DNA of 64,000 nucleotides from a virus. Below the pieces are notes generated by a model, which was given only the letters and a program-made list of their open reading frames with translations, ran no database searches and was not told where the DNA came from. Below, piece after piece: positions 3,010-6,468 of the stretch; the stretch's first letter is position 1; each line of letters starts with the position of its first letter. A program made the translations under genes and the position numbers. Location: positions 1 through 64,000 of IMG/VR virus record IMGVR_UViG_3300005530_000004; one strand, given 5' to 3'.

Positions 3010-4479
3010 ATGCTCACTCCTTCATGGACACCATTAAAATATCACGCTTTGCAAACAAAATTATGGAGAACTAAAGCACAATTTGTCGCTGTTGCAGCAG
3101 GTCGAGGATCTGGTAAAACAGAATTGGCGAGAAGGCGTGTTGTAAGATTTCTCCCAATTAAAAAAGATTGGCCAGACCCAATATATTTTTATGCTTTGCC
3201 AACAATAAAACAAGCTAAGCGAGTTGCATGGAATAAAATACTACATTTAGTACCAAAAGAATGGATTAAAAAAGTAAATATTACGGATATGACAATATCC
3301 ACAATATTTGGCAGCACACTATATGTTTTAGGAATGGATCAACCTCAAAGAATTGAAGGGGATCAATGGGACGGTGGAGTTCTTGATGAATCTTGTGACC
3401 AAAAACCAAAAGTATTTGATTTAAGTGTATTACCAGCACTTACACATAAAAATGGTTGGTGTTGGAGAATAGGTGTACCAAAAAGACACGGTATTGGTTC
3501 CAGAGATTTTAAAAGATTTTATAATTTAGGTGCTGGAATAAATGACGAAGAACATGTTGAAGAATATGAAGATGATGAATCAGAAGCAGCAGCTTTACAA
3601 TTAAAATCGGCAGCAATAGAATCATATTCTTGGCCCAGCAAAGATATATTATCTCCACAACAATTAGCTTGGTCAGAAGCAAACCTTGATCCAAGAGATT
3701 TTAACGAACAATATAATGCAACATGGGAAACTGCGAGTGGTGCAATTTTCTATGCTTATAAAGATGTAGAAGTATCTAGTACATCTAGTACATCTAGTAC
3801 ATCTAATGGAAATCTTGACAGCACAATACAATATCGTCCGGACTTACCATTAATAATAGGTCAAGATTTTAATGTCGATCCAATGGCTTGGATTGTTGCT
3901 CAGTGCAATCATCCTGATGATAAGAAAATTAGATTCAATGTATTTGATGAAATATACATACGAAACACAAATACAATAGAAGCACTAAAAGAGTTATATA
4001 AAAGATATGGACAACATCAAAATGGATTTGCATTTTATGGTGATGCTAGTGGTCGTGCAAGAAAAACTTCCGCTAGTATGTCAGATTACTTGTTAATTCA
4101 GCAAGCTGTACAACGAGGAGAGTTTAAAGGCGGCAGAGTTTACTTTTTAAGGGCAAATCCAAGAGTTCAGGACAGGCTTGCAGCATGTAATGCAATGTTT
4201 TGCAATGCAAGAAATGAACGAAGATTATTTATACATCCAAAATGTAAACATTTAAGACAAGACCTGCAAGAACGACAATATAAAGAAGGGACAAATGAGC
4301 CAGATGATTATGGTGATATTGGACATTGTTCTGATGCTTTAGGTTATCCAATACATAGAATGTTCCCAATTGGAGTAAAACTTACGGATAAAGACCCATC
4401 AGTACATACAAGTTATGCAAGTCAATCTAATACAGGTCAAAGAATAATTCCAGGAATGTCACCAGCTATTTTTAGATAA
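3010..4479 (+). CDS. terL: terminase large subunit
   Basis: Walker A AAGRGSGKT, Walker B GVLDES, nuclease motifs GQDFNVDPMA, YGDASG, HCSDALGY. Confidence 0.96.
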   Translation: MLTPSWTPLKYHALQTKLWRTKAQFVAVAAGRGSGKTELARRRVVRFLPIKKDWPDPIYFYALPTIKQAKRVAWNKILHLVPKEWIKKVNITDMTISTIFGSTLYVLGMDQPQRIEGDQWDGGVLDESCDQKPKVFDLSVLPALTHKNGWCWRIGVPKRHGIGSRDFKRFYNLGAGINDEEHVEEYEDDESEAAALQLKSAAIESYSWPSKDILSPQQLAWSEANLDPRDFNEQYNATWETASGAIFYAYKDVEVSSTSSTSSTSNGNLDSTIQYRPDLPLIIGQDFNVDPMAWIVAQCNHPDDKKIRFNVFDEIYIRNTNTIEALKELYKRYGQHQNGFAFYGDASGRARKTSASMSDYLLIQQAVQRGEFKGGRVYFLRANPRVQDRLAACNAMFCNARNERRLFIHPKCKHLRQDLQERQYKEGTNEPDDYGDIGHCSDALGYPIHRMFPIGVKLTDKDPSVHTSYASQSNTGQRIIPGMSPAIFR

Positions 4480-4503
4480 ATAAATGTCAACAGGCAATAC
4501 AAT

Positions 4504-4728
4504 ATGTCAACAACATATAAAATTAAAAAACTGTGGGAAATAGAGTACCCAATTGGTGAAAGCCCTTATGGGCCAGATAACATAGTTACTGAACATTGGG
4601 AAATAGCAAAATATATACTTGATGAATTAGTAAAATCAAAATCCCTTGAAATACCTGTATCTATTGCATATCTTATTTTAGATTTAAATTCGATGAATCC
4701 AGGTTGGGAAATTAAGTTAATAGATTAG
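4504..4728 (+). CDS. stand-alone paralogue of an internal portal segment (presumed clip region)
   Basis: 23/52 identical residues, ungapped, to portal aa ~293-344 (YPIGESPYGP vs YPIGTSPYGP ... DLN). Confidence 0.8.
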   Translation: MSTTYKIKKLWEIEYPIGESPYGPDNIVTEHWEIAKYILDELVKSKSLEIPVSIAYLILDLNSMNPGWEIKLID

Positions 4729-4746
4729 GTAAGCTAATAACATAAT

Positions 4747-6468
4747 ATGCCACAATTACGCGGACAAAAAGATTTAGACTCTTTGATTCTTTCATTGGAG
4801 AATCAAGGTGGAAGTAATTCTTCGTCCATAGCGAATATAAATACTGGAAGTGTAGGTGCAGAGCGCACTGGTGCGCAAATTCTTGCACAACCTCTTGCTG
4901 GTGGAATATTACATCCGAGTTGGAATGATGAACTCCCACAATCTTACGGAGATATTTGGGGTGAATTAGCAGATTTTCCAGGATTTCCTTGTGCAGATAT
5001 TTCTGGAACTGATGCTCCTGCAAATGATGCTTTTGGTTTACAAAGTGGTTGGAATGCTTTTTATACTAAGAGAGCATTATGGTATCGAGCAATTCGTTCG
5101 ATGCGGCGCGATCCAACTATTAATCTTGCTAGAATATTATCTATTGCACCGATTCTAGCCGCTGGTTGGTCATACGAAGAAAAGGAAAATGCACCTAAAG
5201 GTGCGAGACAATACATAGAAGATGAGATAGAACCGTATAGATTGCACTTAATTCAAACAGGAATGATGAACTGTTCAGATTTTGGCTGGCAATCCTATGA
5301 AATTGTTAAACATTATACAGAACAAGACAATAAAATACATATAAAGAAATTAAAACCACTATTGCCTGATTTAACACATATTCGTGTCAATCAAAGCAAT
5401 GGAGAGTTTATAGGCTTGCAGCAATTTCAGAACTTTGCAAGCATAATGAAGAACTCTATAATAAATTTAAGTATTGATGAATCTTTACTGTATTATATTG
5501 ATTATGAAGGAACAAATTGGTACGGCAACTCTACAATGCGAATTGCAGAGATGCCATATAGGTTTGCTGCAATTACTAATAAAGCGGCAATGCGATATGA
5601 TTTAAAGATTGCTGGTTCGCATTGGGTTGTTAGTTATCCTATTGGTACAAGCCCTTATGGGCCTGCGAAAGTTGAAACAGATAATTTTATAATAGCTCAA
5701 GATATAATTAGAACATTAGAAGCATCTGGCGCAGTTGCAATTCCAACGATGCTAGCTGCTTATATTTCTGATTTAAATGCTGTTGGTGGTGAATTTGCGT
5801 CTGAAAAACGAGATTGGAGAGTAGAAATACTTTCTGATAATTCTGGCGGCGCTGGTAGTTTTGATACGAGATTAAGATATCTTGACTCTTTAAAATTTAG
5901 AGCATTTGGACTTCCTGAACGATCTGCAACAGAAGGGCAATTTGGAACAAAAGCTGAATCAGCTACACAAATAGATTTTGCTTTGACACATATCATGTTT
6001 CGTGGAGATATGTTTTGTCAGCAGACTAATAAGGGCTTAACCAACTTATTATTAAAATTAAATTACGGTCCATGCTACGAGGGATCAGTATTCATAAAAC
6101 AAAAGCCATTAACTGATGAAGCAAAGGAAAGATTATTCCAGATATACATGAAGTTACTTGAATTACCAACAGCGGAGCCACAAGAAGTTGCTGGAATAGA
6201 CTTCAATGAATTGAAGAAAAAATTAGACATTCCAATAAATAAAGAATATATGGAAAGTAGTGAAGATGAAGGTTTAGAAAATTCAGAAGATGAAGCACCA
6301 GTAGATGAATCTACAAGCTTAGAAAGCATATTAAATTCAGTAAATCAAGGTCCAAATTATAACTATACATATACAGGTGACCCAGAAAAAGATAAAGAAA
6401 GCTTAGAAGAACTCACTAATAGAATAAATGGTAATGCGTATAAAGGCTATTCTTACTTAAAGAATTAA
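4747..6468 (+). CDS. portal protein (Mu gp29/DUF935-like)
   Basis: position after TerL; FGWQSYEIV, WYGNS, helical stem, acidic C-terminus. Confidence 0.85.
   Translation: MPQLRGQKDLDSLILSLENQGGSNSSSIANINTGSVGAERTGAQILAQPLAGGILHPSWNDELPQSYGDIWGELADFPGFPCADISGTDAPANDAFGLQSGWNAFYTKRALWYRAIRSMRRDPTINLARILSIAPILAAGWSYEEKENAPKGARQYIEDEIEPYRLHLIQTGMMNCSDFGWQSYEIVKHYTEQDNKIHIKKLKPLLPDLTHIRVNQSNGEFIGLQQFQNFASIMKNSIINLSIDESLLYYIDYEGTNWYGNSTMRIAEMPYRFAAITNKAAMRYDLKIAGSHWVVSYPIGTSPYGPAKVETDNFIIAQDIIRTLEASGAVAIPTMLAAYISDLNAVGGEFASEKRDWRVEILSDNSGGAGSFDTRLRYLDSLKFRAFGLPERSATEGQFGTKAESATQIDFALTHIMFRGDMFCQQTNKGLTNLLLKLNYGPCYEGSVFIKQKPLTDEAKERLFQIYMKLLELPTAEPQEVAGIDFNELKKKLDIPINKEYMESSEDEGLENSEDEAPVDESTSLESILNSVNQGPNYNYTYTGDPEKDKESLEELTNRINGNAYKGYSYLKN

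Follow-up and report, generated by a model that had tools for sequence, protein, structure and literature searches.

Introduction

Portals are among the conserved phage proteins that are recognised by bacterial immunity. [quoted passage not shown] RAZR is activated by assembly around portal rings (PMC13017515), and strands of the clip contribute to the contacts between subunits in portal rings (PMC12847820). Our literature searches turned up no stand-alone paralogue of the clip. Here, we report a 74-residue ORF, encoded directly between the large terminase subunit (TerL) and the portal of a soil and rhizosphere phage, that is homologous to the clip of the phage's own portal and has a stand-alone homologue in a second phage. 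We refer to it as the mini-clip.

Results

Genome setting and packaging operon

The window, that is the whole stretch of DNA analysed, is the first 64 kb of a 74,872-bp IMG/VR virus record that carries direct terminal repeats. Its GC content is 34.5%, and near-identical DNA is present in rhizosphere and soil metagenomes of several studies. Since the portal of one relative is labelled Arachidicoccus soli, a Bacteroidota host is a reasonable guess for this phage. Every gene in the first 12 kb lies on the + strand, and the packing is tight, with operon spacers of 6-55 nt. The mini-ORF lies on the same strand as TerL and the portal and between them, 24 nt past the former and 18 nt short of the latter. 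The features of this region are as follows.

3010..4479, + strand: TerL, 489 aa (PHROG 2 terminase large subunit, E 3e-27; Pfam Terminase_6N)
4480..4503, + strand: 24-nt spacer from the TerL stop to the mini-ORF start, resembling the single TerL-portal spacer of the relative L083
4504..4728, + strand: mini-clip ORF (P0001), 74 aa, stand-alone paralogue of the portal clip domain (BLASTP, clip HMM, AlphaFold2 model, homologue P0124)
4534..4725, + strand: residues 11-74 of the mini-ORF, homologous to portal residues 293-364 (multiple alignment; P0124 starts at the equivalent of residue 10)
4560..4574, + strand: 15-mer AAGCCCTTATGGGCC, coding for (E)SPYGP, identical to 5649-5663
4729..4746, + strand: 18-nt spacer before the portal start, alignable to the 3' portion of the 44 nt that separate TerL and portal in L083
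4747..6468, + strand: portal (P0002), 573 aa, Mu-like, PF06074 (Pfam Portal_Mu, E 1.5e-9; AlphaFold2 model similar to the G20c portal)
5605..5847, + strand: part of the portal gene coding for the clip, residues 287-367 (secondary structure of the AlphaFold2 model)
5649..5663, + strand: second copy of the 15-mer AAGCCCTTATGGGCC, identical to 4560-4574

The frame at 4504-4728 is open over all 74 residues, so that an earlier note on this DNA was right to call it intact. Neither of the short spacers that flank it holds promoter-like or terminator-like sites, and the mini-ORF, like the neighbouring genes, has an A/T-rich start context that lacks a Shine-Dalgarno sequence. Positions 4484-4523 hold two tandem direct copies of a 20-nt repeat that are 75% identical and that each open with ATGTCAACA; the second copy forms the start of the mini-ORF and the first opens a short out-of-frame ORF.

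Other features of the region were noted alongside. Upstream of the packaging genes, a 215-aa ORF (1793-2440, + strand) matches sigma-70 region 2 (E 9e-14) and, just below the Pfam cut-off, sigma-70 region 4 (E 6e-5); an ORF at a similar position in a distant relative, L013, may likewise be sigma-like, a guess from its sequence. Within TerL, three overlapping copies of the 9-nt unit ATCTAGTAC (3774-3805) encode a Ser/Thr run, SSTSSTSSTS, and contigs from soil run X4 carry indels across 3766-3802, suggesting that the run varies in length between strains. Contigs of the rhizosphere metatranscriptome run X14 match TerL at 3894-4170 and the portal at 4934-5233 and 5788-5938 with zero differences, which places the phage in this RNA library, DNA carry-over being possible. 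Among the X14 contigs listed, none spans the mini-ORF, an outcome that is neutral on its expression.

Homology of the mini-clip to the portal

Residues 11-64 of the mini-clip align with residues 293-346 of the portal without a gap, with 23/54 identities (BLASTP, E 1e-12). When all 370 ORFs of the genome were compared with one another, this pair was the best paralogy between separate loci (E 7e-11), and an HMM of the clip, built from 60 portals, matches the mini-clip at E 5e-10. The earlier note had counted 23 identities over 52 gapless positions; the homology and the gaplessness stand, whereas the tool count is 23 over the 54 positions of portal residues 293-346. The note had also read the similarity as resuming at WEIKLI/WRVEIL, and the multiple alignment bears this out: the match picks up at WEIKLI(D)/WRVEIL(SD), past a loop in which the mini-clip has 7 residues fewer than its own portal, and continues to the last residues of the mini-clip. 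At the other end, the first 10 residues are specific to this phage and lacking in P0124. Over 162 aligned bases, the mini-ORF and its own portal clip share 59% of nucleotides and 50% of third positions. The 15-mer AAGCCCTTATGGGCC, noticed previously as identical in both genes, has two exact occurrences in the window, one at 4560 and one at 5649, against 0 expected from shuffles.

The residues W11, Y15, P16, G18, A35, L42, P51 and W68 of the mini-clip fall on invariant portal columns and are retained. Other invariant or nearly invariant portal residues are altered: P0001 alone has H for N313 and K for G328, whereas the replacement of E360 by K is common to the two mini-clips. The mini-clip gives no match to Portal_Mu even at E up to 1 and does not belong with whole portals; its homology is to the segment between stem helices alpha-3 and alpha-5. 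Searches of Pfam and PHROGs returned nothing for it.

The duplicated segment is the clip in structural models

An AlphaFold2 model of the portal, made from an alignment of 60 homologues, reached a mean pLDDT of 77 and superposes on the G20c portal (VIA Z 23.3, rmsd 6.0 Å, 349 residues aligned) and on the Mu portal (Z about 20). In this model, two long stem helices, 263-286 and 368-386, enclose residues 287-367, which form short strands, a single helix at 313-323, a strand at 329-333 and the last strand at 358-362. The clip is defined as the strands and the one helix that, at the ring base, link one stem helix to the other (PMC12847820), and the clip helix and loop of P23-45, residues 263-275 (PMC7234808), agree with the offset of the structural alignment. 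The proposal of the earlier note that the duplicated segment is the clip is thereby upheld: the model places the segment between helices 263-286 and 368-386, in accordance with the published definition. Because the copied segment sits between the two stem helices of the modelled portal, the models support the view that P0001 covers the entire portal clip and nothing else.

The mini-clip itself was modelled by AlphaFold2 at a pLDDT of 88.9 with its elements in the order found in the clip, in a model that leans on the portal alignment used. Its single-sequence model in the ESM Atlas has a pLDDT of 0.49, the nearest structural cluster being that of the P23-45 and Mu portals (TM 0.47). A fold search with the P0001 model returned no portal chain, the best hit being EF-Ts (Z 3.9), and a PDB sequence search with the portal profile returned nothing. 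Co-folding of portal residues 100-510 with the mini-clip gave a score of 0.00, which, without controls and with the partner fold uncertain, counts neither way.

A second stand-alone mini-clip

An exhaustive HMMER search of 1.84 billion representative proteins with the mini-clip gave one strong match (E 8e-15), P0124, a stand-alone protein of 63 aa with 62% identity to residues 11-72. The record of P0124 lists one Logan contig, of 31,292 bp, and so does that of P0005, the portal closest to that of the window (79% identical); the two thus appear to share one contig. P0001 and P0124 have in common, unlike any portal, the motifs PYGPDNI, EIAK and LDLNSMNxGW, and a K for the nearly invariant E360. 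They differ in length by one in-frame indel of 2 residues and by the 10-residue N-terminal extension of P0001. In a tree of clips, they cluster together with a support of 99/98 on a long stem branch. They were also the sole members retrieved by word-based searches of 5.8 billion clusters; two members of the family are known among about 15 billion proteins. In the phage GenBank collection, neither the region nor the small protein had a DNA match or a tblastn match, and scans of IMG/VR with the portal alone and with the two mini-clips found nothing. In the contigs of four runs, the ORF is identical across two independent soil or rhizosphere studies and hence has zero polymorphisms.

Distribution among relatives

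Scans of IMG/VR, of JGI metagenomes and of GTDB genomes with the portal alignment yielded 168 loci, among which one close relative, L083, has the TerL-portal junction visible. Its portal is 70% identical and the C-terminus of its TerL clearly homologous, and its TerL-portal gap consists of 44 nt without a small ORF. In another locus, L162, the portal is directly preceded by a 246-aa ADP-ribosyltransferase ORF (19-759, + strand; Pfam PF03496, E 1e-6); this locus belongs with the Arachidicoccus-labelled portal, in the same portal clade, and its short contig does not show whether TerL comes before the ORF. Given the absence from L083, the ADP-ribosyltransferase in L162 and the total of two members, these sequences indicate that the mini-clip gene is an accessory confined to one small lineage and that the place just upstream of the portal is a variable slot. 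The gene is dispensable, since a fairly close relative, L083, lacks it. In the wider family, several portals have PF03496 or PF18823 domains fused to them.

A scan with the clip HMM, which covered 162 loci and preceded the GTDB scan, found a second clip-like match in the window, in L013 and at one contig end only. The last of these, a minus-strand match of 24 residues to the start of the HMM at the end of a 6.7-kb contig (L003), was set aside as a probable assembly artefact, an inverted end. L013 is a distant relative whose portal is 42% identical; about 1.6 kb upstream of TerL it carries an 84-aa ORF (735-989, + strand) that is a fragment of a portal, made of stem helix alpha-3 and the first half of the clip. 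By tblastn this fragment matches the clip of about 70 portals; its pairwise E to its own portal is 3e-4 and that to the clip HMM 2e-6. Because the ORF cuts through the clip domain, it looks, as far as its sequence tells, like debris of independent origin, and it calls for caution, since portal fragments can evidently arise without obvious function.

Age and origin

Against the portal of L083, the mini-ORF has 60% nucleotide and 52% third-position identity, values close to those obtained with its own portal and tracking the low GC3. In the HMMER search of the 1.84 billion representatives, no portal exceeded about 42% identity to P0001, and no recent donor is known. The earlier note had described the ORF as diverged rather than a fresh scar, and we agree: no portal among these representatives is closer than about 42%, the third positions are no nearer to its own portal than to that of L083, and a stand-alone homologue is 62% identical. 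Recent duplication or gene conversion was considered as the source of the shared 15-mer and rejected, the silent-site identity to the phage's own portal being not above that to the portal of L083 and the 15-mer lying on the conserved SPYGP motif.

In the clip tree, a long branch of 1.55 changes per site leads to the mini-clips, which fall just outside their own portals' clade. AU tests did not reject a grouping of the mini-clips with P0002 and P0005 (p 0.35), nor did they reject their placement together with that entire clade (p 0.44). The short loop of the mini-clip has the length found in distant portals such as P0126, whereas the whole home clade has a loop 7 residues longer; this fits an origin that predates the insertion, a capture from some sister lineage, or a deletion at a later time. 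The spacers on either side of the mini-ORF are each similar to the one spacer that L083 has between TerL and portal, and AATATG is read at both starts; this likeness hints weakly at a tandem duplication with subsequent trimming.

Rate of change and constraint

The two mini-clips are separated by a tree path of 0.88, with 38% of positions differing, as compared with a path of 0.06 and about 3 differences in 78 aligned positions (counted by eye) between the clips of the cognate portals P0002 and P0005. The mini-clip has thus evolved roughly 15 times faster than the portal clip. Between the mini-clip and its own portal clip, dN is 0.54 and dS 0.86; since the portal side hardly changes, the mini-clip would have been under relaxed or positive selection after its origin.

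For the portal and TerL, dS between the window and L083 is about 1.0-1.1. Under neutrality, an amino acid identity of 62% would correspond to about 0.21 substitutions per site, and neutral sequence at a dS of about 1 would diverge far beyond that identity. Provided that the P0005 phage is as distant as L083, the comparison of P0001 with P0124 therefore points indirectly to purifying selection, with an omega of roughly 0.2-0.4. This constraint may be weak, since 62% identity is about the divergence of the loosely constrained portal tails. In neutral simulations run to 62% identity with substitutions only, 11.5% of the frames stayed open; a random frame of 74 codons with this base composition is open with a probability of 0.002. 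We consider the mini-clip gene to be probably functional.

Discussion

We propose that the mini-ORF is a gene under selection whose product, a small protein in its own right expressed with the late packaging operon, consists of the portal clip domain only. It would have come from a portal gene, either by a tandem duplication trimmed to the domain or by capture from a related portal. Since then, its rate of change would have been many times that of the clip in the working portal, with the residues that stabilise the fold retained. Outside the ring, a free clip would show the surface bound by clip ligands without the 12-fold platform, and could soak up a clip-binding factor. This factor may be a host defence protein that docks on portal clips, as SpbK does on YonE; monovalent binding would then stop the clustering of the sensors, which would be occupied singly. 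The proposal supposes a protein that is expressed, remains monomeric, finds a binding partner and benefits the phage. The earlier note had already named as possible functions a decoy inhibiting portal-sensing immunity or satellite interference, and a regulator of TerL docking. On our analysis, mimicry of the clip that targets a clip-binding factor, in the first place a host sensor, is a tentative reading whose chances we put somewhat below even. A host factor is favoured because the gene is accessory and patchily distributed, sits in a variable slot and evolves fast, as would be expected of an anti-defence decoy. A separately encoded and fast-evolving clip would give a phage a simple and new means of interfering with whatever binds the exposed surface of the clip.

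The same surface is used by the phage's own machinery, and a free clip might instead regulate packaging or head completion, by binding TerL or the adaptor and timing their docking, or by binding portal monomers and controlling ring assembly. The role of the clip as docking site of the terminase and of the tail or adaptor machinery (PMC12847820, PMC11984713), the location of the gene exactly between TerL and the portal, with which it would be co-expressed, and the retention of the core fold residues W11, Y15, P16, G18, A35, L42, P51 and W68 all suit such a regulator. We nevertheless regard it as unlikely: L083 lacks the gene, although a needed regulator would be expected wherever TerL and portal are the same, and the mini-clip has changed invariant or nearly invariant portal residues (N313H and G328K in P0001 only, E360K in both) and has evolved about 15 times faster than the portal clip although its supposed partners, TerL and the portal, are conserved. 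The distribution, the slot and the rate fit a gene of conflict better than a packaging factor, which any relative sharing this TerL and portal would be expected to require as well. Conflict could also be directed at competitors, the free clip, no longer fitting the ring of its own phage, entering or capping the portal rings of co-infecting related phages or satellites, or occupying their terminase. Clip strands do take part in the subunit contacts of portal rings (PMC12847820), many portals of the family show about the same similarity to the mini-clip (30-43%), its loop is short as in other clades and unlike the long loop of its own, and its evolution is fast. However, we found no precedent in the literature for a clip-based poison subunit, and an identity of about 40% to every known portal means that no particular target is matched; we judge a weapon of this kind very improbable.

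The gene might, finally, do nothing, and be a remnant of a portal duplication or of recombination between phages that is still open and decays slowly. This would suit its presence in two related phages only and its absence from the relative with a 70% identical portal, the high overall dN/dS against the portal clip (0.54/0.86), the flanking spacers, both of them similar to the one spacer in L083, a pattern that would be expected after a tandem duplication, and the portal-fragment ORF of L013, which shows that such pieces occur elsewhere in the family; neutral drift to 62% identity, moreover, leaves the frame open in 11.5% of simulations. Against decay stand the boundaries of the ORF, which coincide with a whole structural domain, its own ATG, and a frame that is open in two lineages whose sole indel is in frame. 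Its silent sites are saturated against every known portal and yet the frame is open, where a random frame would be so with a probability of 0.002; phage genomes are compact, with spacers of 6-55 nt in this operon; and a divergence of 38% is far below the neutral expectation at a silent-site divergence of about 1 per site. Taken together, we find a mere remnant rather doubtful.

Returning to the clip mimic, the precedent of SpbK and YonE makes a clip decoy a concrete and testable idea. If the mini-clip is a decoy, it would define a class of counter-defence genes with a simple search rule, namely small ORFs that are paralogues of a single domain from a protein known to trigger immunity. Should it tune packaging, it would offer a new handle on the docking of TerL to the portal, which is structurally still poorly resolved. 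Either way, it is a natural experiment on the autonomous folding and action of a portal clip. More broadly, phages might detach a structural domain on which immunity docks and deploy it as a free, fast-evolving, monovalent decoy that blunts SpbK-, Avs4- or RAZR-like defences; we hold this generalisation to be a long shot. If true, anti-defence proteins would include a 'self-mimic' class whose members descend from the very protein that acts as the trigger.

Comparison with known systems

The nearest known counterparts of the mini-clip are the clips of Mu-like and G20c-like portals (PF06074; G20c 4ZJN/6IBG, P23-45 6QJT, Mu 9KHX), which are homologous and, judged by the AlphaFold2 model of the mini-clip, have the same order of strands and helix. 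Like them, the mini-clip keeps the invariant W, Y-P-x-G, A, L, P and W. Unlike these portals, it has no wing, stem, crown or tunnel loop and is 74 aa long, and it departs from portal clips by N313H and G328K (each in P0001 alone) and E360K (both mini-clips) and by its roughly 15-fold faster evolution. The L013 fragment (735-989) is likewise a small ORF drawn from the middle of a Mu-like portal and placed upstream of the packaging genes; in contrast to the mini-clip, it holds half a clip and alpha-3, and no conserved homologue of it was seen.

Among defence systems, SpbK and YonE of Bacillus subtilis and SPbeta, together with Nip, show the clip as a docking surface for defence and provide an example of small phage genes for counter-defence. 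Nip, the phage counter-defence protein of this system, binds the TIR domain of SpbK and is no portal mimic, unlike the proposed mini-clip, and we know of no clip-derived inhibitor. The poxvirus protein K3L is a mimic of eIF2alpha that inhibits PKR. Mimics of the K3L type share the logic proposed here, in which a fast-evolving, stand-alone copy of a domain recognised by a sensor would compete with the real target. K3L mimics a protein of the host, whereas the mini-clip would mimic a structural protein of the phage itself.
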